Origin: Minisyncoccota bacterium
Lineage (GTDB): Bacteria > Patescibacteriota > Minisyncoccia > Phycocordibacterales > UBA9973
Length of the DNA: 64,000 bases
Direction of reading: 5' to 3'
Assembly: GCA_041674285.1 (NCBI GenBank)
Contig: JBAYVZ010000002.1
Location: 14,600 to 78,599 of the forward strand
This document shows, piece after piece, positions 2,487 to 63,414 of the stretch. A program made the translations under genes and the position numbers. Position 1 is the stretch's first letter; the number at the start of each line of letters is the position of its first letter. A model generated the notes under the pieces. It did no database searches, was not told the DNA's origin, and saw only the letters and a program-made list of their open reading frames with translations.

Positions 2487-3533
2487 TTATTTCTCAATAT
2501 TCAAAATCTTTATGAGTGCGAGTTCTAGTGGTAGCTCTTTGATACTACTGTGTCCAGACATTTGATATGCCTCGAGTAATATTAAAAGTGCACGAGATGA
2601 GATATGCTCTGGCTTTTCGAGGACTAGCTCCCCTAGGAATGTTTTATCCTTTTCTGAGAGGGGTATGATACTCGCCATCTTTGGCGCATAGCGTAGCAGT
2701 AATGCAGCACGCATCTTTACAAGTACCATCTTCATATATAGATGCATGTCACTATTCTGTGCAGAGACTGCATTGATAGCCATATACCCCCGCTCGATAT
2801 CATTGTGTGCGAGAGCTCGGAGAAAGTCATCTACTAGTGTGATATCCGGTGAGCCAGTCACTTCGAGGATTTGCTCCAAACTTATTTTTTTACTTTGTGA
2901 GAATGATATGACTTTTTGTAGAGTAGATTGTGCGTCACGAAAAGCTCCATCTGATATGAGTGCGATGACTTCTGCCCCACCTGCCTCGAGTGTATACCCT
3001 TCTTTCTTTGCAGTACTGCTGACCACATCAGCGAGAATTTTCTCTGTAGGTTTTTTGAAAGTAAAAGTCTGACATCGGGATACGATAGTCTCTGGTACTT
3101 TTGATAGCTCTGTTGTAGCGAGGATAAATACCACATATTCAGGTGGCTCCTCTATAGTCTTTAGCAGTGCATTCCATGCCTCTTTTGTCAGCATGTGCAC
3201 CTCGTCGAGGATGTAGACTTTGTATTTATAATCAAATGGCATAGTACGCACACTCTCACGGATATCACGAGCGTCTTCTATCTTTCTGTTACTTGCTGCA
3301 TCCATCTCGTAGATATCATTTACACTTGTACCTAGTTCGCGGGCGATGATACGTGCGATAGTAGTCTTGCCAGTACCACGTGGGCCGGATAGTAGATACG
3401 CATGAGCCACCTTCCCCGCTGCAAAGGCACCTCGGATAGCATTCACGATATGATCCTGACCTATCACCTCGTCAAAATTCTCGGGGCGGTACTTTGTATA
3501 TAGAGCGATATTTGATTCTTCTTTTTTAGACAT
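2487..3533 (-). CDS. dnaX: DNA polymerase III subunit gamma/tau, short form (clamp-loader ATPase)
   Basis: 348 aa; Walker A GPRGTGKTT, DEVHML, SRC motif (VSRCQ), clamp-loader domains I-III; no tau C-terminal domains. Confidence 0.85.
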   Translation of the reverse strand: MSKKEESNIALYTKYRPENFDEVIGQDHIVNAIRGAFAAGKVAHAYLLSGPRGTGKTTIARIIARELGTSVNDIYEMDAASNRKIEDARDIRESVRTMPFDYKYKVYILDEVHMLTKEAWNALLKTIEEPPEYVVFILATTELSKVPETIVSRCQTFTFKKPTEKILADVVSSTAKKEGYTLEAGGAEVIALISDGAFRDAQSTLQKVISFSQSKKISLEQILEVTGSPDITLVDDFLRALAHNDIERGYMAINAVSAQNSDMHLYMKMVLVKMRAALLLRYAPKMASIIPLSEKDKTFLGELVLEKPEHISSRALLILLEAYQMSGHSSIKELPLELALIKILNIEK

Positions 3534-3650
3534 CCCGTTAGAGATAGGTAATGATTACATTACCGTATCGAGTTAACATATAGTAATAAATACGACTTAC
3601 TTTAAATAATATCCCATAGATAGAAATAGAACAAACACATCTCTAACGGG
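3534..3650 (-). mobile_element. MITE-like element, copy 1 (117 bp, 12 bp terminal inverted repeats) inserted at the dnaX start codon
   Basis: TIR cccgttagagat/atctctaacggg; flanked by (a)cat/aacat duplication containing the ATG; internal hairpin ggtaatg-atta-cattacc; first 70 nt about 90% identical to copy 2. Confidence 0.6.
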
Positions 3651-10753: not shown

Positions 10754-11160
10754 TAATCTAGGCACGGGTTACCCGTGTCCAGGAAATTAGCAGACAAAGC
10801 TAGGGCATGATCTAAATTTTCCTTATCACTTGCCTTAAAAGGTTCTTTTTTAAAAAATGTAAAATCAGACAAATTATGTTTTTTTGATTTGAAATAAAAA
10901 TCAATACATCCATCTCTGTTGAATATGATTTTCACAAAATTCAAATCTTTTTGTGCATAAAAATAGTGCATTGGCTGTTTGATTGAATCAAACATAATTT
11001 GTCGATCACCTACATGTATATTTTTATGCTTTAATGAATTTTTGATTCTACTACTCACGTAGTCTATAGAATGTAGAACTTGAAAGAAAAAATCATCATC
11101 GATTTTATCGTGTAGGCTTGCTACAGGGATAAAAGTCCAAGGTAATTTTGGATTTTTCAT
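10753..11160 (-). CDS. hypothetical protein
   Basis: 135 aa ORF, Phe-rich, no family recognised. Confidence 0.4.
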   Translation of the reverse strand: MKNPKLPWTFIPVASLHDKIDDDFFFQVLHSIDYVSSRIKNSLKHKNIHVGDRQIMFDSIKQPMHYFYAQKDLNFVKIIFNRDGCIDFYFKSKKHNLSDFTFFKKEPFKASDKENLDHALALSANFLDTGNPCLD

Positions 11161-17237: not shown

Positions 17238-17807
17238 TTATTGCTTAGGAGCAGTATTTAAATCTACTGGTGTATCTGTCTCTTTTGGATCGGCAGGTTT
17301 TACTTCGTCTGTGATTTTTGATTTTGATTGAATTTGTAAAATCACAAAACCATTTCCATAACTTTTTAAAATCTTTGCTTCGAATAAATCTGAGCCTAGC
17401 ATTACTTTGTATGAATCTTCTTTTCCTGTGAGATTATTCATCTCGATCAAAATTAATCCAGAATCAGAGATTACTACACCTTGGCCCAATGGTCTGATGG
17501 GGTCTATCGCTACGATATCTTTATCTTCCTCACTAGGTGTGACAACTACATAATTTTTATCATATACAGACACCAGCACAGCATTATCAGAAAGACTGAT
17601 TCCTTGCTTCTTTTCTTCAGATGGAACCTGAACGGTGGTCACCTTTTCTATCGTTCTCTGAATTACGTTATTAATAGTCTGAGTGGCGCTCTTTGGCATC
17701 TGATTCATCAGAGTCACAGTTACTATACCAGTAGCGATTGATACAACAAACGTTATTAATAAGGTCAATAATATAAGTTGGGTTTTGTTTAATTCTTTGA
17801 TATCCAT
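17238..17807 (-). CDS. hypothetical membrane-anchored/secreted protein
   Basis: 189 aa; N-terminal TM helix then soluble domain; no family recognised. Confidence 0.5.
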   Translation of the reverse strand: MDIKELNKTQLILLTLLITFVVSIATGIVTVTLMNQMPKSATQTINNVIQRTIEKVTTVQVPSEEKKQGISLSDNAVLVSVYDKNYVVVTPSEEDKDIVAIDPIRPLGQGVVISDSGLILIEMNNLTGKEDSYKVMLGSDLFEAKILKSYGNGFVILQIQSKSKITDEVKPADPKETDTPVDLNTAPKQ

Positions 17808-17926
17808 CCCGTTAGAGATAGGTAATGTTTACATTACCGTATCTTGTTAATATATAGTAAAAATACGACTTTCTTTTTTTATAAACCACCCCGAATTAGA
17901 AAGATAACAAGCGCATCTCTAACGGG
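17808..17926 (-). mobile_element. MITE-like element, copy 2 (119 bp) at the start codon of the 17238..17807 gene
   Basis: TIR cccgttagagat/atctctaacggg; atccat duplicated on both sides; internal hairpin ggtaatg-ttta-cattacc. Confidence 0.6.
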
Positions 17927-28769: not shown

Positions 28770-30743
28770 CTAATTAGCCTTCTTACAAGAACTGTTAATC
28801 AACTCCCTCGTCTTTGGTCCTACTAATCCATCACCAGTGACACCAAATTTGTTTTGCATTTTAACAACTATTGATTTTGTATTTGGTCCAAATATTCCAT
28901 CCTCTTTGACTGGTCCGTATCCTAGTCTGTTCATATGAGATTGGAGTATCTTTACATCACTGACTACATTCTTGGTATATGTATTGTACACACCGTCTCT
29001 GGCTCCAGATCTGATCTTTTGAGTTAATGCAGTACACTTTGTATTTGGAATTGTAGTTGGTGTAGGAACAGTGACTGGTACTACGACAGGAGCGGGTGCA
29101 ACTACGACTGATACAGCAGGGGCAGAGTATCTTGAAGATGAAGAAGAACTTCCATATCTTCTAGGGCACGATGATGTAGTAAATGTATCGTCAGATCCAT
29201 TTGTAGTACCTGCTGTGTTAGTAGAGAAAGCACGGTAGTGATATGTAGTATTACATGAGAGTCCTGTGATATCTGCAGTATATGCACCAGTACTGTATGA
29301 ACCTGATTCAGATGATGTAGATCCGTAGCTGTCTGTTAGGCCATAGTGGAATCCACGGGCAGTGTTGTTCTCACCTCCTGTGTTTGTGATGTTACCACCT
29401 AGTGTCGCAGTCTCAGTAGTGATACTGGATGCAGATGTAGTGGAGATTGTAGGGGCACATGCTGTAGTAGTGAAAGTAGAATCAGAGCCATTGGTCGTAC
29501 CTGCTGTATTTGTAGCAAATGCACGGTAGTGATACAGAGTGTTACATGATAGTCCTGTGATATCTGCAGTGTATGCACCAGTACTGTATGAACCTGATTC
29601 AGATGATGTAGATCCGTAACTGTCTGTTAGACCGTAGTGGAATCCTCGAGCAGTGTTGTTCTCACCTCCTGTGTTTGTGATGTTACCACCTAGTGTCGCA
29701 GTTGTGGCAGTTACGCTAGATGAAGATCCGGTGGTGATTGTGGGGGCGACAGTATATGTGATATCTGCGGTCCAAATATTCATATTAGAACTTCCAACTG
29801 CAATTTTTGTTCCATCAGCTGACAAAGCAACTACAGATGAATCTCTAGATCCAGCAGATGTTTGACTTGTCCACGTAGCTCCGCTATCACCTGATATATA
29901 AACATAATCACTATACCCAGATGCTGCAATCTTAGTACCATCAGAAGACATAGCTACCGATGCCCACTGACGACTACCAGAAGAATTACTATTTGTAGAC
30001 CAAGTCACTCCACTATCTGTGGATGTATATATATAACCACCACTATCTGCTGCTGCAATTTTTGTACCATCAGAAGACATAGCGATTGAGGACCACTGAC
30101 GACTACCAGAAGAATTACTATTTGTAAACCAAGTCACTCCACTATCTGTGGATGTATATATATAACCACCACTATCTGCTGCTGCAATTTTTGTACCATC
30201 AGAAGACATAGCAACTGATGTCCAATTCCTATCCCCTGCAGCATTTAAATTATTGGTCCAATTGGCACCACTATCCCCTGAAGTATAAACTTTTTCATAA
30301 TATCCCAAAGCTACTAGCTTTGTACCATCGGAAGATGAATCAACACCTTTCCAATAACGAGAAAATCCGGAAGGTGCCACTGGGTCAGAAACTATCTGTG
30401 TCCAAGTAGCTCCACTATTTGAAGAAATATAAAGATAATCATTATAAGCTGATGCTATCAGTTTTGTTCCATCAGAAGATGAAGAGATTGAATTCCAGTT
30501 TTTACTACCTGAAGAATTTCCGTTTGTAGACCACGTTACCCCACTATCCGTAGAAGTATAAATATAACCAAAAGATACTGCAGCAGCGAGCTTTGTACCA
30601 TCGGAAGAAGAAGCTATGGCATTCCACGATGCAACACCAGAACCTGTATGCTCTGTCCAAGTAGCAGATACAGCAGAAGCTTGCATTGGCAAGAGACTCA
30701 CGACTAGAAACAAGATAGATAAAATTGAATAAAATTTTTTCAT
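28770..30743 (-). CDS. secreted cell-surface protein: BNR/Asp-box beta-propeller + two Fn3-like repeats + C-terminal peptidoglycan-binding domain
   Basis: signal peptide MKKFYSILSILFLVVSLLPMQASA; at least 6 SxDxGxTW Asp-boxes; duplicated 97-aa Fn3-like modules; PG_binding_1-like C-terminus; TGnTATAAT promoter element upstream. Confidence 0.7.
   Translation of the reverse strand: MKKFYSILSILFLVVSLLPMQASAVSATWTEHTGSGVASWNAIASSSDGTKLAAAVSFGYIYTSTDSGVTWSTNGNSSGSKNWNSISSSSDGTKLIASAYNDYLYISSNSGATWTQIVSDPVAPSGFSRYWKGVDSSSDGTKLVALGYYEKVYTSGDSGANWTNNLNAAGDRNWTSVAMSSDGTKIAAADSGGYIYTSTDSGVTWFTNSNSSGSRQWSSIAMSSDGTKIAAADSGGYIYTSTDSGVTWSTNSNSSGSRQWASVAMSSDGTKIAASGYSDYVYISGDSGATWTSQTSAGSRDSSVVALSADGTKIAVGSSNMNIWTADITYTVAPTITTGSSSSVTATTATLGGNITNTGGENNTARGFHYGLTDSYGSTSSESGSYSTGAYTADITGLSCNTLYHYRAFATNTAGTTNGSDSTFTTTACAPTISTTSASSITTETATLGGNITNTGGENNTARGFHYGLTDSYGSTSSESGSYSTGAYTADITGLSCNTTYHYRAFSTNTAGTTNGSDDTFTTSSCPRRYGSSSSSSRYSAPAVSVVVAPAPVVVPVTVPTPTTIPNTKCTALTQKIRSGARDGVYNTYTKNVVSDVKILQSHMNRLGYGPVKEDGIFGPNTKSIVVKMQNKFGVTGDGLVGPKTRELINSSCKKAN
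29150..29730. repeat. 291 bp tandem duplication (2 copies) encoding the Fn3-like modules
   Basis: cacggtagtg anchors at 29231 and 29522; copies about 90% identical. Confidence 0.85.
29936..30225. repeat. 129 bp near-identical tandem repeats (2.2 copies) inside the BNR-protein gene
   Basis: taccatcagaagacatagc... units at 29936, 30065 and 30194; about 96% identical; encode 43-aa BNR blades. Confidence 0.9.
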
Positions 30744-30787
30744 GTAATGGCAATAAATAATTGTAATATACATACTATTATACAATA

Positions 30788-30828
30788 CCCACAAAAAAAC
30801 ACCACGAATGTGGTGTTTTTTTGTGGGT
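30788..30828. terminator. bidirectional terminator (rpsR / BNR-protein gene)
   Basis: acaaaaaaacaccac-gaat-gtggtgtttttttgt. Confidence 0.75.
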
Positions 30829-31030: not shown

Positions 31031-31147
31031 CCCGTTAGAGATAGGAAGTCCTGAGACTTCCGTATCTTATTGATTATTGTTAATAATATAGACCTGAGTA
31101 TTTTTTGATACTACCCGATAAAGACATAACGAAACATCTCTAACGGG
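31031..31147 (-). mobile_element. MITE-like element, copy 3 (117 bp) filling the ssb-rpsR intergenic space
   Basis: TIR cccgttagagat/atctctaacggg; tttcat duplicated on both sides; internal hairpin ggaagtc-ctga-gacttcc (compensatory changes relative to copies 1 and 2). Confidence 0.6.
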
Positions 31148-31160
31148 ATTTCATAATTTT

Positions 31161-31610
31161 TTAGAATGGGATATCCTCTACATTGATTGCATCATCTGGG
31201 TATTCGATACTGTCCATTGATGAATCTTCTTTTGGAGCTGGTGCCCCAGGAGTAGAAGGTCTTGGGCTACCAGATGGTGATCCAGTAGAACCAAATTGTA
31301 CACGGTCAGCGATGACTTCAGTGCGATACTTCTTTGTACCAGTGCCTGCATCATCCCAACTTCTTGTCTGCATTCTTCCTTCAATCATAACCTGACTACC
31401 CTTTTTCATGTATTGAGCCACTGTTTCTGCTTGGCGTCCGAATACTACGATATTGTGATAATCAGCAGCTTCTTGTTTTGCACCATTTGCATCTTTCCAG
31501 ACACGATTAGTTGCTACAGAGAAACTACAAACTTTGATTCCAGAAGGCAGTGCCTTTATCTCTGGATCACGAGTCAAATTTCCGATAATAAATGCTTTGT
31601 TTAAGTACAT
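31161..31610 (-). CDS. ssb: single-stranded DNA-binding protein
   Basis: 149 aa; OB-fold N-terminus, Gly/Pro-rich linker, acidic C-terminal tip DIPF. Confidence 0.85.
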   Translation of the reverse strand: MYLNKAFIIGNLTRDPEIKALPSGIKVCSFSVATNRVWKDANGAKQEAADYHNIVVFGRQAETVAQYMKKGSQVMIEGRMQTRSWDDAGTGTKKYRTEVIADRVQFGSTGSPSGSPRPSTPGAPAPKEDSSMDSIEYPDDAINVEDIPF

Positions 31611-31724
31611 CCCGTTAGAAGCAGGAAATGTTTACATTTCCGTTACTTGGTTATTGTTATAATATCGACATAAATAGAATATTATTTATATTTACCCGCT
31701 CTAGCCATAAAAGCTTCTAACGGG
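31611..31724 (-). mobile_element. MITE-like element, copy 4 (114 bp) filling the rpsF-ssb intergenic space
   Basis: TIR cccgttagaagc/gcttctaacggg (perfect 12 bp, variant sequence); tacat duplicated; hairpin ggaaatg-ttta-catttcc. Confidence 0.6.
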
Positions 31725-31733
31725 ATACATATA

Positions 31734-32207
31734 TTATTCTAGCACGAGAGCGTCGATTTCTTTATCAACAGCCTCTTCATCGATCGGAGCCATCTCTGCC
31801 TCTGTCTTTGTGTGCGCTGGCTTGCGGCGTGGACCGTCAGCTTTGTATGCACGCTTTTGAGACATAGTATTCTCGCGAACAGTCTTGATCATGATGTAGC
31901 GGATGAATGTCTCATTCTTGTCCATCATGTCTTTGATAACAACTGCAGCTTCTGTATTTGTCTCAAACTTTACCCAGCCAAAGTATCCATAAGAAAACTT
32001 TTGCTTTTTGTTCATAATACTGCGACTCATTTCATATGCTAGTTCCATCATACGAGGATACTCATCTGAAATAAATGTCACACCTTTTGCAGTTAAAATA
32101 TCTTTAAATGCTGTAACTTCTGCACCTAGATTCTCTTCTGCGATAGAAGGAACCATAAGGTAACCTATCTCATACACACTTGTACGAGCTTTTGTTTCAT
32201 TTTCCAT
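31734..32207 (-). CDS. rpsF: 30S ribosomal protein bS6 with acidic C-terminal extension
   Basis: 157 aa; S6 fold-like N-terminus (YEIGYLMVPS); conserved rpsF-ssb-rpsR order. Confidence 0.65.
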   Translation of the reverse strand: MENETKARTSVYEIGYLMVPSIAEENLGAEVTAFKDILTAKGVTFISDEYPRMMELAYEMSRSIMNKKQKFSYGYFGWVKFETNTEAAVVIKDMMDKNETFIRYIMIKTVRENTMSQKRAYKADGPRRKPAHTKTEAEMAPIDEEAVDKEIDALVLE

Positions 32208-32341
32208 GATTTTTGCGTAAAAATACGCTTATAATTACTACTTTTAAAATACTGTTGTTGTGGACCTTTGTATCCCCGTTTTCAGTACGAGGATAAACGA
32301 CAGTAGAGTTATATTAGCAGAAAAACCCTATTTTGGCAAGG

Positions 32342-32411
32342 CCCGTTAGAAGCCGCCCCCGATAGTAATCGGGTGACTACGGTCACCCTGGGGCGACCTG
32401 CTTCTAACGGG
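32342..32411 (-). mobile_element. MITE-like element, copy 7 (70 bp, GC-rich interior)
   Basis: same TIR as copy 4 (cccgttagaagc/gcttctaacggg); flanked by caagg direct repeat; interior forms nested hairpins (cccga-tagtaa-tcggg, gtgac-tacg-gtcac); not at a start codon. Confidence 0.55.
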
Positions 32412-32417
32412 CCAAGG

Positions 32418-33260
32418 TTATATTTTGAACACCCTTTTAGCATTGGCTATGATAGTCTCTGCCACTACTTCAGGGTCCAGACCCTTTATCTCAGCGATTT
32501 TTTTTGTGATTTCTTGTACATATACGGGTTCATTGCGCTTGCCTCTATAAGGCTTTGGACTGACATATGGCGAGTCCGTCTCTGTCATGATCATATCAAT
32601 CGGAGTCTGCCTTATCACCTCATCATAGTCATGGGTGAATGTGACTACCCCTGTAAAAGATAGAGTAAAACCAAATTCTACAAATGCACGAGCGACATCT
32701 GGTGAACCAGCAAAAAAGTGCACATCCCCTTTTACCTTGGCATGTTGTTTTAAAATTTCTAGTGAATCAGCATATGCATCATATGTCTTATCCTCGGGAT
32801 TATTGCGGATGTGGAGCATCAGTGGCTTGCATACTTCATTTGCGATTTCAATTTGTCCGATGAATGCTTCTTTTTGTTTTTGTATTGTCTCTGGAGTACA
32901 CCTGTAATAATCCAATCCGCACTCACCGACTGCGACTACTTTTGGATCACGGAGTAATCCTATGTATTTTTCTTTATCAAAAATTTCTCCACGAGAAGTG
33001 AATTCTATTCCACCCTCACCCAATTCCTTTTCATCGTGATATGAGGCGCCAGTATGTATCGGATGCAGTCCGATGATGGCATATACGCCCTCATTATATT
33101 CATGTGCCATCTCCACCGCCTTGCGACTTGTGTCTATCTGTGTACCCACATTTATCACCCATGTATCCGCATCGAGTGCCCTACGAATAACAGCATCACG
33201 ATCTTCATCGAATGCCTTGAAATTCACATGTGAATGTATGTCTATATATTTTGGTGTCAT
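32418..33260 (-). CDS. tatD: TatD family metal-dependent hydrolase/DNase
   Basis: 280 aa; IDIHSHV N-terminal His pair and TIM-barrel TatD motifs. Confidence 0.85.
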   Translation of the reverse strand: MTPKYIDIHSHVNFKAFDEDRDAVIRRALDADTWVINVGTQIDTSRKAVEMAHEYNEGVYAIIGLHPIHTGASYHDEKELGEGGIEFTSRGEIFDKEKYIGLLRDPKVVAVGECGLDYYRCTPETIQKQKEAFIGQIEIANEVCKPLMLHIRNNPEDKTYDAYADSLEILKQHAKVKGDVHFFAGSPDVARAFVEFGFTLSFTGVVTFTHDYDEVIRQTPIDMIMTETDSPYVSPKPYRGKRNEPVYVQEITKKIAEIKGLDPEVVAETIIANAKRVFKI

Positions 33261-37927: not shown

Positions 37928-39225
37928 TTATCCCAATTTTTCTTTTATATAATCCACGAGTTCTATGATCGCAATACGTTCCTGAGTGCCAGTATCACGA
38001 TCTCGGATAGTCACTGTATCATCAGTCAGAGTATCAAAGTCGATGACTATACACCATGGTGTACCTATCTCGTCTTGTCTTCTGTATCTCTTTCCAATAT
38101 TTCCATTGTCATCCCACATCACACGGCCGAATTCATTCTTGAGCGTGCCGTATACCATACGAGCTTTTTCGATGAGTTCTGGCTTGTTCTTCAATAGTGG
38201 TGACACAGCGCAGACAACCGGTGCTATATGCGGAGCAAATTTTAGATAGCTACGCACCTCCCCATCCTTGTCATCTTCCATATATGCAGATGTCAGCAGT
38301 GCGAGTACGGTACGATCTACACCAAAAGATGGCTCAATAACATGAGGGATAAATTTTTGAGCAGTCTCCTCATCTTGATATGAAAGATTATGAATTTTTA
38401 AATCAAAATCTGTTCTATATGCAAGACCATATAGTTCCTTTCTCCCAAAAGGAAAATCAAACTCAAAATCCACAGTACGTGAAGAGTAGTGAGCAAGGTC
38501 CCCCTCTGCTACTTCTAGCTCGTGAACCTTTGTCATATCGATGCCGATACTATCCATCCACTCTATCATCTCCTCTTTAAAGAAAGTAAAATACTTTTCC
38601 CAATCATCAGGTCGGACAAAATACTCTATCTCCATCTGCTCTATCTCGCGCACACGAAATATAAAATCGCGAGGGGTGATCTCATTGCGGAAAGCTTTAC
38701 CGATCTGACCGATACCAAATGGTAGCTTTGGATGGAATGAGTCTACAATATTTTTGAAGTTTACAAATATACCCTGTGCGGTCTCTGGACGTAGATATAC
38801 AGTCGCTGCACTATCCTCTACTGCACCAATCTTTGTAGAGAACATCATATTAAAATTACGAGCTTCACCTGTCGGAGCACCACAATCATCACACTTGCCT
38901 GATACAGCTAGATTATCTTCACGGAATCTTTTTTTACATTTTGTACATTCTACAAGTGGATCAGTAAAAGTATCCACATGGCCAGAGGCCATCCATACAC
39001 CTGGATGCATCAATATAGCAGCATCCACTTCATACATATCATTGCGAGACGAGACAAATTTCTTTCTCCATCCATCCTTGATATTATTCTTCAACATGAC
39101 ACCTAGTGGACCATAGTCAAATGTACCCGCTAGACCTCCATATACCTCAGAGCCTGATATACAAAGCCTCTTCGTTTGCAGAGAGAGATTATCTTCTCCA
39201 TTAGTTTATCATCGTTTTTATCCAT
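37928..39225 (-). CDS. glyS: glycyl-tRNA synthetase (class II, GlyQS type) with apparent 1-nt frameshift near codon 24
   Basis: N-terminal 32-codon ORF (39130..39225, MDKNDDKLMEKIISLCKRRGFVYQ...) and main ORF 37928..39097 both match GlyRS (RRGFV / SGSEVYGGLAGTFDYGPLG); restoring one C near 39155 joins them. Confidence 0.75.
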
Positions 39226-39342
39226 CCCGTACGAAATAGGAAATGTTTACATTTCCGTATTTAATTATAGTTATCATTAATAATACCGACTAAGTCTATT
39301 ATTAGAAATCCGTAGAAACATGACATACACATTTCGTACGGG
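39226..39342 (-). mobile_element. MITE-like element, copy 5 (117 bp) at the glyS start codon
   Basis: TIR cccgtacgaaat/atttcgtacggg (third variant); atccat duplicated; hairpin ggaaatg-ttta-catttcc. Confidence 0.6.
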
Positions 39343-62073: not shown

Positions 62074-63297
62074 TTATTCATACCTCAGGGCTTCAATGGG
62101 ATTGAGCTTTGAAGCTTTTTTTGCAGGATAATAACCAAATACAATACCAATAGCAGCAGAGACACCAAATGACAACAAGACAGAAGATACAGATACAGTA
62201 GTCTGAAGTATCCCCAACTTGGAAACAAGCGCCGAGACACCCCACCCGAGAGCCACACCTATGACACCTCCGATAAATGTCAGCATTATGGCTTCGATTA
62301 AAAATTGACGATTTATATCACGACGCTGTGCACCGATAGCTTTGCGTAGGCCAATCTCCCGAGTACGCTCGGTTACAGTAGTGAGCATCATATTCATGAT
62401 GCCGATACCTCCTACTACCAATGATATACCCGCAACAGCAGCTAGTAATATAGTAAATGTACCAGTGACAGAGGAAGCTGTAGCTATGATATCTGCTTGA
62501 TTCAAAGTAGAAAAATCTGCAGCAGAAGGGTCAGTAATATCATGACGCGACAACAACAGATTAGTAATTTCTGATTGTACGACAGTAGTGGTATCTGCGT
62601 CCTCTGCACTGACAGAGATACTAGACACATACTCATCCCCAGAAAGAAACTTTTGAGCAGTTGTGACTGGAATAAAAATCATATCATCTGAATTCTGAAA
62701 ACCAGATCCACCTTTTGATCGAGTTACACCTATAACTTTAAAATTAATTTGTTTTATTTTTATGGTCTTGCCGATAGGATCAGTATCTTCACCAAACAAA
62801 TCCACCTGAACGGTAGGACCGATGACTGCAACTTTGGCTGAGCTGTCTACATTTTGATCGGTAATAAATGATCCATTATCTACAAATAAATTACGGACAT
62901 CTGAATACGAGGCAGTGGTACCTACTACTGATGTATTTGTATTTGTACCTTTTGCAGATACTTGATATCGACTAGTAACTTCGGGTGATACAGACCGAAC
63001 CCCAACTATACCGGACTGTATAGCATACGCATCATCTAGAGTTAGACTCTTGGCAGTACCTCTACCACCACTAACTTGAAATCCAGGTCCACGAGCCGTA
63101 CCCGGAGTCACTATAATTAAGTTAGATCCGATTGATTGTATTGATGCCTGAATCGAGGACTGAGCCCCTTGACCGATAGCTGTCATAGCGATTACGGATG
63201 CGATACCAATAACGATACCGAGCATAGTCAGACCTGATCGGATTTTGTTACTGGATAGTGCAATCCATGTCTCTTCTAAAATATCTTTTGTTTTCAT
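62074..63297 (-). CDS. ABC transporter permease (FtsX/MacB family)
   Basis: 407 aa; N-terminal TM, large periplasmic domain, 3 C-terminal TM helices (FtsX domain). Confidence 0.8.
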   Translation of the reverse strand: MKTKDILEETWIALSSNKIRSGLTMLGIVIGIASVIAMTAIGQGAQSSIQASIQSIGSNLIIVTPGTARGPGFQVSGGRGTAKSLTLDDAYAIQSGIVGVRSVSPEVTSRYQVSAKGTNTNTSVVGTTASYSDVRNLFVDNGSFITDQNVDSSAKVAVIGPTVQVDLFGEDTDPIGKTIKIKQINFKVIGVTRSKGGSGFQNSDDMIFIPVTTAQKFLSGDEYVSSISVSAEDADTTTVVQSEITNLLLSRHDITDPSAADFSTLNQADIIATASSVTGTFTILLAAVAGISLVVGGIGIMNMMLTTVTERTREIGLRKAIGAQRRDINRQFLIEAIMLTFIGGVIGVALGWGVSALVSKLGILQTTVSVSSVLLSFGVSAAIGIVFGYYPAKKASKLNPIEALRYE

Positions 63298-63414
63298 CCC
63301 GTATGAAATAGGAAATGTCTACATTTCCGTATTTAATTATATTCATCATTAATAATACCGACTGAGTTTATCTTTTAAATCCGTAAAAAATAAAACAAAC
63401 ACATTTCGTACGGG
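63298..63414 (-). mobile_element. MITE-like element, copy 6 (117 bp) at the permease start codon
   Basis: TIR cccgtatgaaat/atttcgtacggg (T.G wobble on the plus strand only); ttcat duplicated; interior about 80% identical to copy 5. Confidence 0.6.

Follow-up and report, generated by a model that had tools for sequence, protein, structure and literature searches.

What is a short GC-rich palindrome doing between tatD and rpsF of a Minisyncoccota bacterium: is it a piece of mobile DNA, a cis-acting RNA of the locus, or a hairpin that came by its ends through chance? The question arises at positions 32342–32411 of a 64,000-nt stretch of contig JBAYVZ010000002.1 (assembly GCA_041674285.1), referred to as the window and numbered from its first nucleotide, which holds seven copies of such palindromes with arms that pair perfectly or at 11 of 12 positions; six are long and AT-rich, and the seventh is the 70-nt element discussed here. 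[quoted passage not shown]

Read on the + strand, the element is CCCGTTAGAAGC - CGCCCC - CGATAGTAATCG - GGTGACTACGGTCACC - CT - GGGGCG - ACCT - GCTTCTAACGGG. Its inverted arms (CCCGTTAGAAGC/GCTTCTAACGGG) pair at 12 of 12 positions, or 13 of 13 if the G/C pair at the tip is counted, so that the terminal inverted repeats extend from G32341 to 32353 and from 32400 to C32412. The arms enclose 46 nt which form two hairpins and have a GC content of 0.65, compared with 0.27–0.32 for the interiors of the six long copies and about 0.39 for the genome (window 39%). Within 32354–32395 an inner helix, CGCCCC (32354–32359)/GGGGCG (32390–32395), closes both mini-hairpins, an architecture found in 66 distinct elements: hairpin 1, CGAT-AGTA-ATCG (about 32360–32371), is supported by the folds and by covariation in the subfamily, and hairpin 2, GGTGAC-TACG-GTCACC (about 32371–32388), with its C(UACG)G loop, by the folds. 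The unpaired ACCT (32396–32399) between inner helix and right arm is, by comparison across the family, a conserved mark of asymmetry common to the B-type long elements, which have CCT before the gene-proximal arm. As RNA the + strand folds with −53.5 kcal/mol (z −7.9 against shuffles) and the − strand with −52.8 kcal/mol (z −6.7); as DNA both strands fold equally well (z −8.3 and −8.7). An earlier note on this DNA had described a short, GC-rich interior of 46 nt with nested hairpins inside gccgcccc/ggggcgac; length, composition and the two hairpins stand, with a fold well beyond that of shuffled sequences, but the inner helix comprises 6 bp and is followed by the unpaired ACCT. The same note was right in that the arms are identical to those of long copy 4, as the exact 12-mer occurs four times in the window, that is, at both arms of either element. 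This arm is, however, the commonest of the short and B-type subfamilies and therefore no evidence of local kinship.

The element is flanked by a direct repeat, CAAGG, at 32337–32341 and 32413–32417, with an extra C at 32412. The repeat had been taken as it stands for the target-site duplication; most likely the true duplication is the 4-bp CAAG (CTTG on the gene strand; 32337–32340 on the left, CAAGG with G32341, and 32413–32416 on the right), the G and C next to it being the end pair of a 13-bp inverted repeat. The mobile unit including the tip pair would then be 32341–32412 (70–72 nt), and the total gain with the duplication 76 nt. The right copy of the duplication adjoins the stop codon of tatD (32418–32420), which is 6 nt from the element, and the rpsF ATG (32207) is 134 nt from the nearest element end; the copy is thus intergenic, upstream of rpsF and away from an ATG, as had been noted, although the distance had been given as 130 nt.

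Evidence for insertion comes from orthologous tatD-rpsF-ssb-rpsR regions, which were fetched from relatives across graded TatD identity; the window's own TatD is 100% identical to an NCBI protein labelled Candidatus Paceibacterota. In L211 (TatD 95%), L003 and L004 (93%) and L006 (89%) the site is empty: an uninterrupted ...AACCTTGCCAAAA... contains a single CTTG, and ...TATA[A/G]CCTTGCCAAAA[T/C]A[G/A]GGTTTTTCTGCTAATAT... is unbroken. L005 has another upstream neighbour, yet its TTGCCAAAA is equally uninterrupted. The window allele, ...TATAACCTTG-G[CCCG...CGGG]C-CTTGCCAAAA..., equals the same site plus the element plus a second CTTG. At the level of sequence, this comparison shows the CAAG(G) repeat to be a true target-site duplication and the 70-nt element to be inserted in comparison with close relatives. 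L002, L005 and L211 also lack the window's long copies 3 and 4 and have spacers of only 23–28 nt before ssb and rpsR, and among the relatives at 89–95% TatD identity none has an element of the family at the tatD-rpsF site or before ssb or rpsR; all three elements of this region are therefore recent arrivals in the window lineage. At nearly the same tatD-rpsF position, L002 (TatD 94%) carries a different palindrome of 80 nt (CCCCGGTAGTGAATTTTGGCAT...ATGCCAAAATCTACTAACCGGG; 10846–10925), and related palindromes thus seem to insert preferentially at the terminator/−35 hairpin of tatD-rpsF. Before the ssb and rpsR starts, L003 (3664–3750 and 4201–4284) and likewise L004 and L006 have a CTAG-rich palindrome of some 85 nt (..ACTAGTGACTAGGGTCTAGAAATTTCTAGAACCTAGAACCTAG..CCCTAATTT-ATG); the start-codon niche is shared by different element families.

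The insertion appears to have left the signals around it intact. A consensus scan identified a promoter-like site for rpsF on the − strand (32311–32339; TTGCCA-17 nt-TAATAT, with a TG-extended −10), which is kept at the empty sites and presumably functional, and whose −35 overlaps the left duplication copy. Insertion split CCTTG|CCAAAA, but TTGCCA was restored because of the duplication, and an intact −35 box now directly follows the element, with tatD upstream of it. The element has no T-run after it; the native small hairpin with its T-run persists further downstream. The window copy is probably neutral selfish DNA and at most a stable hairpin in the tatD 3′ untranslated region (UTR).

Elements with the same ends are numerous. 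When one genome per species was scanned for CCCGTTAGARRY-N40-100-RYYTCTAACGGG, at least 120 genome stretches were returned with termini CCCGTTAGA...TCTAACGGG around interiors of 40–100 nt. Among the matches listed, the hosts are mostly Patescibacteria (Saccharibacteria, Paceibacterota, Nomura-, Kaiser-, Kerfeld-, Moran-, Berkelbacteria and others); other labels among them belong to metagenome-assembled genomes (MAGs) of Omnitrophota, Planctomycetota, Delta- and Gammaproteobacteria, which may partly reflect mis-binning, though several of these copies have GC-rich flanks. In 140 of 224 non-redundant copies a clean 4-bp duplication is accompanied by a complementary pair just outside CCCG/CGGG. 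The consensus of these 140 duplications is T-N-N-A (125 begin with T, 123 end with A), with C-N-N-G as a minor class; at the tip, 76 of the copies have T/A, 61 have C/G and 3 have G/C, and the short window copy, with a G/C tip and a CAAG duplication, is rare in both features. Identity at the fifth base is modestly and symmetrically enriched (74 and 71 observed, 52 expected), and the sixth downstream base is unmatched. Alternative geometries, that is, a 5-bp duplication to which one non-templated base, the complement of its first base, is added, or a 6-bp duplication, were considered and rejected, as the statistics of the 140 copies favour 4 bp with a variable end pair. The ends of the family are thus 13-bp inverted repeats whose tip varies, Y-CCCGTTAGA...TCTAACGGG-R, together with a 4-bp duplication.

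Between these termini, the more than 200 copies have interiors of 4 nt to about 100 nt which fall into several unrelated classes, in agreement with the earlier note, which took the arms for the conserved module and the interior for a part that can be exchanged. The whole family spans 28–123 nt; its minimal hairpins (28–30 nt) consist of the arms and a loop of 4–6 nt, and nested copies are present in L069 and L083. In two GC-richer genomes (L088, 3720–3819; L207, 2491–2590), doublets reminiscent of REPINs were observed, in which CTTGY, a 28-nt minimal hairpin, a 34-nt spacer with a hairpin of its own, a second 28-nt minimal hairpin and RCAAG follow one another. That the short element is a member of the family, as had been proposed, is borne out by termini, end geometry and target duplication as in the long copies and by the empty site in relatives. 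Rfam at gathering score finds only four tRNAs in the whole window and, at E ≤ 10, nothing plausible in 31500–32600; the short-form consensus had no BLAST match in plasmid or phage collections; a scan of viral contigs returned 4 stretches in 2 contigs and no more; and a search with the two encoded peptides at 46 aa yielded almost no matches. Literature searches found no description of the family; their coverage was incomplete, so that an earlier description is possible.

The architecture of the window copy itself recurs. Scanning metagenomes for arm-CGCCC-N20-45-GGGCGACCT-arm gave 79 stretches with 66 distinct elements; conservation of the columns set by this pattern (arms, CGCCC, GGGCGACCT) follows from the search itself and does not count as evidence. 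The common layout of the 66 is CGCCC, a highly variable hairpin 1, hairpin 2 with GYGnC-UACG-GYCRC, CYY-GGGGCG, the unpaired ACCT and the arm, mostly AGAAGC/GCTTCT. Hairpin 1 is formed by more than 12 different stems, all of them paired when each element is folded alone. In an alignment of 45 elements, 92.6% of the cells in paired columns are paired, compared with 86.0% in shuffles (0 of 500 reach the observed value) and 37–51% if the partners are slid; cells with a double change number 77 against 18.8 in shuffles (again 0 of 500), and compensatory changes occur at all five pairs of hairpin 1. These data show the subfamily to be widespread and its predicted structure to be constrained. Recurrence of GC-rich interiors had been named beforehand as the check on this element, and with 66 distinct copies the objection that it is an isolated hairpin fails.

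Most of the short copies are found within genes. The subfamily covers 64–75 nt, and lengths peak at 66, 69, 72 and 75 nt; 47 of 57 copies whose length is a multiple of three lie within long open frames, compared with none of the nine others (64, 65, 67, 67, 68, 70, 70, 70 and 71 nt; Fisher p = 2.5e-6). The frame CCC GTT AGA..., on either strand, is used by 41 of the 47, which thereby encode PVRSRP...GRPASNG or PVRSRSPQGDRST..RAASNG. Their orientation relative to the host gene is unbiased (24 vs 23); together with the equal fold of both DNA strands, this fits a role of the fold at the level of DNA. Stop codons are absent from four of the six frames in 44 of 66 short copies, which is the maximum because the arms hold TAG/TAA in the third frame, and the six long window copies are closed in all six. 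The multiple-of-three length and the absence of stops account for the usual survival of the subfamily in genes. For the window copy the opposite holds: hairpin 1 contains TAG/TAA, only two reading frames are open, and with 70 nt, or 76 nt added in total, it could therefore persist only between genes.

Ten hosts were confirmed by Pfam, namely PheT, ArgRS, PurD, a beta-CASP RNase, TsaD, MurB, Fpg, Ddl, FtsW/RodA and an RluA-type pseudouridine synthase. In RsmH of a Nomurabacteria MAG the insert reads ...KLENID|PVRSRPLEHESATITLGRPASNG|IDGIIFDLG and aligns as an extra loop against the MraW structure (PDB 1m6y). In three diverged genomes (L014, 2403–2471; L186, 2320–2388; L193) an element occupies one and the same position of rsmH, just ahead of the (V/I)DGIIFDLG strand, a pattern which suggests either a hot spot or some upkeep of the arms once inserted. 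An Fpg/MutM open reading frame (ORF) of 347 aa in L129 has two element-derived inserts, a degraded HPVRNPPSRQSGTASAASGRLISNGVN and a fresh DPVRGRSPRGGRSRPAKGGRAASNGVD; to judge from these remnants, it shows repeated colonisation by the element and its decay into ordinary coding sequence.

The long AT-rich forms occupy a different place. All six in the window lie on the − strand, and all six abut a start codon, where the duplication, (A)TGNA, regenerates the ATG. Copy 1 (3534–3650) abuts the gene at 2487–3533, copy 2 (17808–17926) the gene at 17238–17807, copy 3 (31031–31147; arms CCCGTTAGAGAT) rpsR, copy 5 (39226–39342; arms CCCGTACGAAAT) hisS, and copy 6 (63298–63414; arms CCCGTATGAAAT/ATTTCGTACGGG, paired at 11 of 12 positions) the gene at 62074–63297. 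Copy 4 (31611–31724; 114 nt), which has an AT-rich interior, is located between the rpsF stop and the ssb ATG, and its duplication includes the ATG. Across the family, 34 of 49 elements with CCT directly before one arm are followed by ATG and at most six face the reverse way (p = 8e-6); short or C/G-tipped copies are mostly away from an ATG. The gene-proximal module of the long forms is ACGG-hairpin-CCU-arm-AUG, and their strong orientation lock implies selection for a function of this end; a consensus scan of long copy 4 found no sense-strand promoter. The earlier note had held that the link to ATG is not strict targeting, and this is also the outcome here, as the duplication rule demands only T-N-N-A (with the minor C-N-N-G) and many copies are off ATG. 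The siting of the long form is best explained by a weak target preference, loss of gene-breaking insertions, and selection for an orientation compatible with expression.

In long copies (e.g., 31611–31724; also in L053, L107 and L108), a degenerate version of the 3′ arm (..CTAnnCGGG..) recurs internally, 8–25 nt past the 5′ arm, which makes an alternative small hairpin possible. The duplicated upstream ATG of the long copies opens an ORF of 4–10 codons reading into the 5′ arm; it may be speculated that this short upstream ORF keeps the stem melted.

How, then, did the element get there? What it shares with MITEs are terminal inverted repeats, a duplication of fixed length, small size without a transposase gene of its own, and multiple copies with presence/absence polymorphism. 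The regular 4-bp duplication, sharp termini, young perfect copies, nesting and strain polymorphism are features of a non-autonomous transposon whose mobilising enzyme is supplied in trans. This enzyme would recognise either the palindromic termini or the single strand in its folded state, and would integrate the element where cuts are staggered by 4 bp; the GC-rich interior might have been selected in that it removes stop codons, encodes a tolerated loop rich in Pro, Arg, Ser, Gly and Ala, and keeps the fold needed for mobility. Several observations do not sit well with this picture. In 8-kb loci neither a transposase nor an autonomous partner was detected between termini, and no distant pair of termini encloses a gene; when 972 ORFs from 203 element-bearing loci were clustered, only housekeeping families and no transposase-like enrichment emerged. 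A clean duplication is lacking in 84 of 224 copies, the tip pair differs even among near-identical copies, which is unusual in transposon ends, and the rsmH copies of the three diverged genomes have decayed duplications but perfect 12-nt arms. Further, translation of the in-gene copies, probable as it appears, is deduced from length and frame alone. To our knowledge, many accepted MITEs, Correia elements included, are without a cognate autonomous element.

The variable tip pair, the fold-preserving covariation and the reoccupation of rsmH leave room for a structure-specific single-strand mechanism. It would be possible, if improbable, that the palindrome moved as a folded single strand through an HUH/RAYT-like or other structure-specific enzyme, or via an RNA intermediate, rather than as a derivative of a DDE transposon: the entire element is a hairpin, which in minimal copies is reduced to the arms and 4–6 nt of loop; compensatory changes keep the interior fold in lineages that are still mobile; the C(UACG)G loop is typical of RNA; REPIN-like doublets of minimal hairpins exist; and neither the 8-kb loci nor the 972 clustered ORFs contained a DDE transposase. 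However, the regular 4-bp duplication is a hallmark of staggered-cut DDE integration, whereas IS200/IS605 and REP/RAYT systems make none; the GTAG/CGTC tags of REP are absent, and the arms are perfect, without the bulged bases such enzymes use. For the family as a whole, a tentative view, to which we give some but not much credence, is that it has two safe harbours, one for AT-rich forms that insert exactly at the ATG, regenerate it and provide an oriented leader module, and one for GC-rich forms read through in frame within essential genes, that it is possibly cross-phylum, and that it is perhaps moved as a folded single strand by an enzyme which may be host-encoded.

The remaining explanations concern the locus, the genes or chance. 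A very stable stem-loop directly after the tatD stop and upstream of the ribosomal operon rpsF-ssb-rpsR could be a cis-acting RNA, either a terminator or stabiliser of tatD or a leader regulating rpsF, and stems of MITEs such as Correia and ERIC can influence mRNA processing (PMC10969869). Such a role is very unlikely, as the closest relatives do without the element and yet keep the native hairpin with its T-run and the promoter; the element lies upstream of the predicted −35, hence outside the rpsF transcript, no T-run follows it, homologous copies reside in unrelated contexts, mostly within genes, and Rfam has no match. That the in-gene copies escape translation, being removed as mini-introns or skipped by the ribosome like mitochondrial “byp” elements, with the window copy as a stray, would accord with structured GC-rich inserts in essential genes of AT-rich genomes, with short direct repeats at their flanks and with the conservation of structure by covariation; it is hardly credible, since every one of the 47 in-gene copies has a length divisible by three and no stop in the host frame, a constraint that neither splicing nor bypass needs, and since an RNA-level signal should be strand-specific while orientations in genes are equal. 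Chance, finally, as the reason why an unrelated hairpin would share a 12-mer with copy 4, may appear arguable from within the window, where only two elements have the exact arm and a loose search (≤2 mismatches) gives 5 matches with 2.3 expected; with both arms exact, the same end geometry and duplication, an empty site in relatives and 66 homologous copies, its probability is negligible. Further readings were rejected. In integron attC sites the order is reversed (GTTAGAA ... TTCTAAC here, RYYYAAC ... GTTRRRY there), and the family has no bulged arm bases and does have a target duplication; assignment to REP/RAYT fails on the YCCCG termini in place of GTAG/CGTC, the perfect arms and the regular 4-bp duplication; and CRISPR repeats, DNA uptake sequences and terminators are ruled out by duplication, empty sites and distribution.

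A mobile palindrome with these properties has counterparts, none of which matches it fully. The Rickettsia palindromic elements (RPEs; Ogata et al. 2000, cited after PMC10969869) are in-frame palindromic selfish DNA in housekeeping genes of Rickettsia. RPEs and the family described here have in common that they are palindromic, lie in frame in unrelated housekeeping genes of small, AT-rich, reduced genomes, add a peptide loop, occur also between genes and have no known transposase; RPEs measure about 100–150 bp, while the short form has 64–75 nt. The family further differs in its 13-bp terminus, the 4-bp T-N-N-A duplication, a double-hairpin interior open in four of six frames, the apparent cross-phylum spread and the start-codon-locked sister subfamily. 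The likeness is one of behaviour only; the hosts are Patescibacteria and other uncultured phyla, not Rickettsiales. In-frame insertion in the manner of RPEs is thus found in the subfamily, and the window copy itself is intergenic.

Like the Correia (CREE), ERIC and RUP MITEs, the family is non-autonomous, about 100 nt in size, bounded by terminal inverted repeats and a short duplication, numerous and strain-polymorphic; like them, it is usually located just upstream of genes, and its stems join mRNAs (PMC10969869). Correia elements, for which no transposase is identified, have 26-bp repeats, a TA duplication, proven promoters and IHF sites (PMC10969869); here, the one long copy scanned is without a sense-strand promoter, the long window copies stand exactly at the ATG, and the short form is coding-compatible. 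The piggyBac superfamily, with IS1380 as bacterial relatives, has terminal inverted repeats of about 13 bp and a TTAA duplication with the variants TAAA, TCAA and GTAA (PMC10813416). A short CCC-initial inverted repeat and a T..A-framed 4-bp duplication recall these elements, but the fit is loose: a variable base pair separates duplication and CCC, and the duplication is T-N-N-A, not TTAA. No transposase of this type turned up, although no search aimed at one was made. The likeness to IS1380 draws on the end of ISEcp1, and the link to piggyBac/IS1380 is a lead only.

In fungal mitochondria, GC clusters, double-hairpin elements and “byp” are short GC-rich mobile hairpins in AT-rich genomes which are sometimes coding and flanked by short direct repeats. 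They differ in being organellar and in their termini, and byp is skipped by the ribosome and has no multiple-of-three constraint; the multiple-of-three rule in the short copies indicates read-through translation. REP sequences and REPINs, which are mobilised by RAYT, are extragenic palindromes of 20–40 nt, sometimes in inverted doublets, with GTAG/CGTC tags, imperfect stems and no duplication. Minimal hairpins and doublets are shared with them; the regular 4-bp duplication and the perfect arms are not.

Some features of the neighbourhood deserve mention. The rpsF 5′ UTR (32208–32310, − strand) is a leader of about 100 nt that is conserved in all relatives and in which AUACAAAGGUCC comes after a hairpin, CCUCGUACUGAAAACGGGG; it could be an S6:S18 autoregulatory leader, although there is no Rfam match even at E ≤ 10. 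In hisS (37928–39225, − strand), around 39154, the window differs from the ENA contig L001 (ERZ27247358 k141_2193188) by two substitutions and one missing A, which shifts the frame of the window gene (stop after about 31 codons), whereas the ENA gene call is an intact HisRS of 432 aa; the discrepancy probably stems from assembly or consensus calling at a homopolymer. At 28770–30794 (− strand), a secreted-looking protein of 674 aa is encoded, which consists of repeats of about 43 residues (..SSDGTK..YxSxDSGxTW..) and two repeats of 97 residues; in its DNA these appear as tandem repeats of 129 nt and 291 nt (families D1, D2 and D4).

Taken by itself, the copy at tatD-rpsF is ordinary selfish DNA and an entry point to an interesting family. 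The kind is known, be it MITE or RPE-like coding palindrome; what appears to be new is the combination of termini apparently conserved across phyla, modular interiors, a stop-free GC-rich form in frame and an ATG-locked AT-rich form in genomes of the Candidate Phyla Radiation (CPR). These genomes are tiny and almost all coding, which poses a siting problem for selfish DNA, and this problem has seemingly been solved twice with the same ends. If this is true, selfish DNA within coding genes, known mainly from Rickettsia, would extend to a huge uncultured radiation, and inserts of 22–26 residues rich in Pro, Arg, Ser and Gly in essential CPR enzymes would be accounted for. It would also call for caution in annotation, where duplicated ATGs and spurious short upstream ORFs are concerned, and provide strain-level markers; and it would pose a question of enzymology, namely which protein recognises YCCCGTTAGA palindromes.

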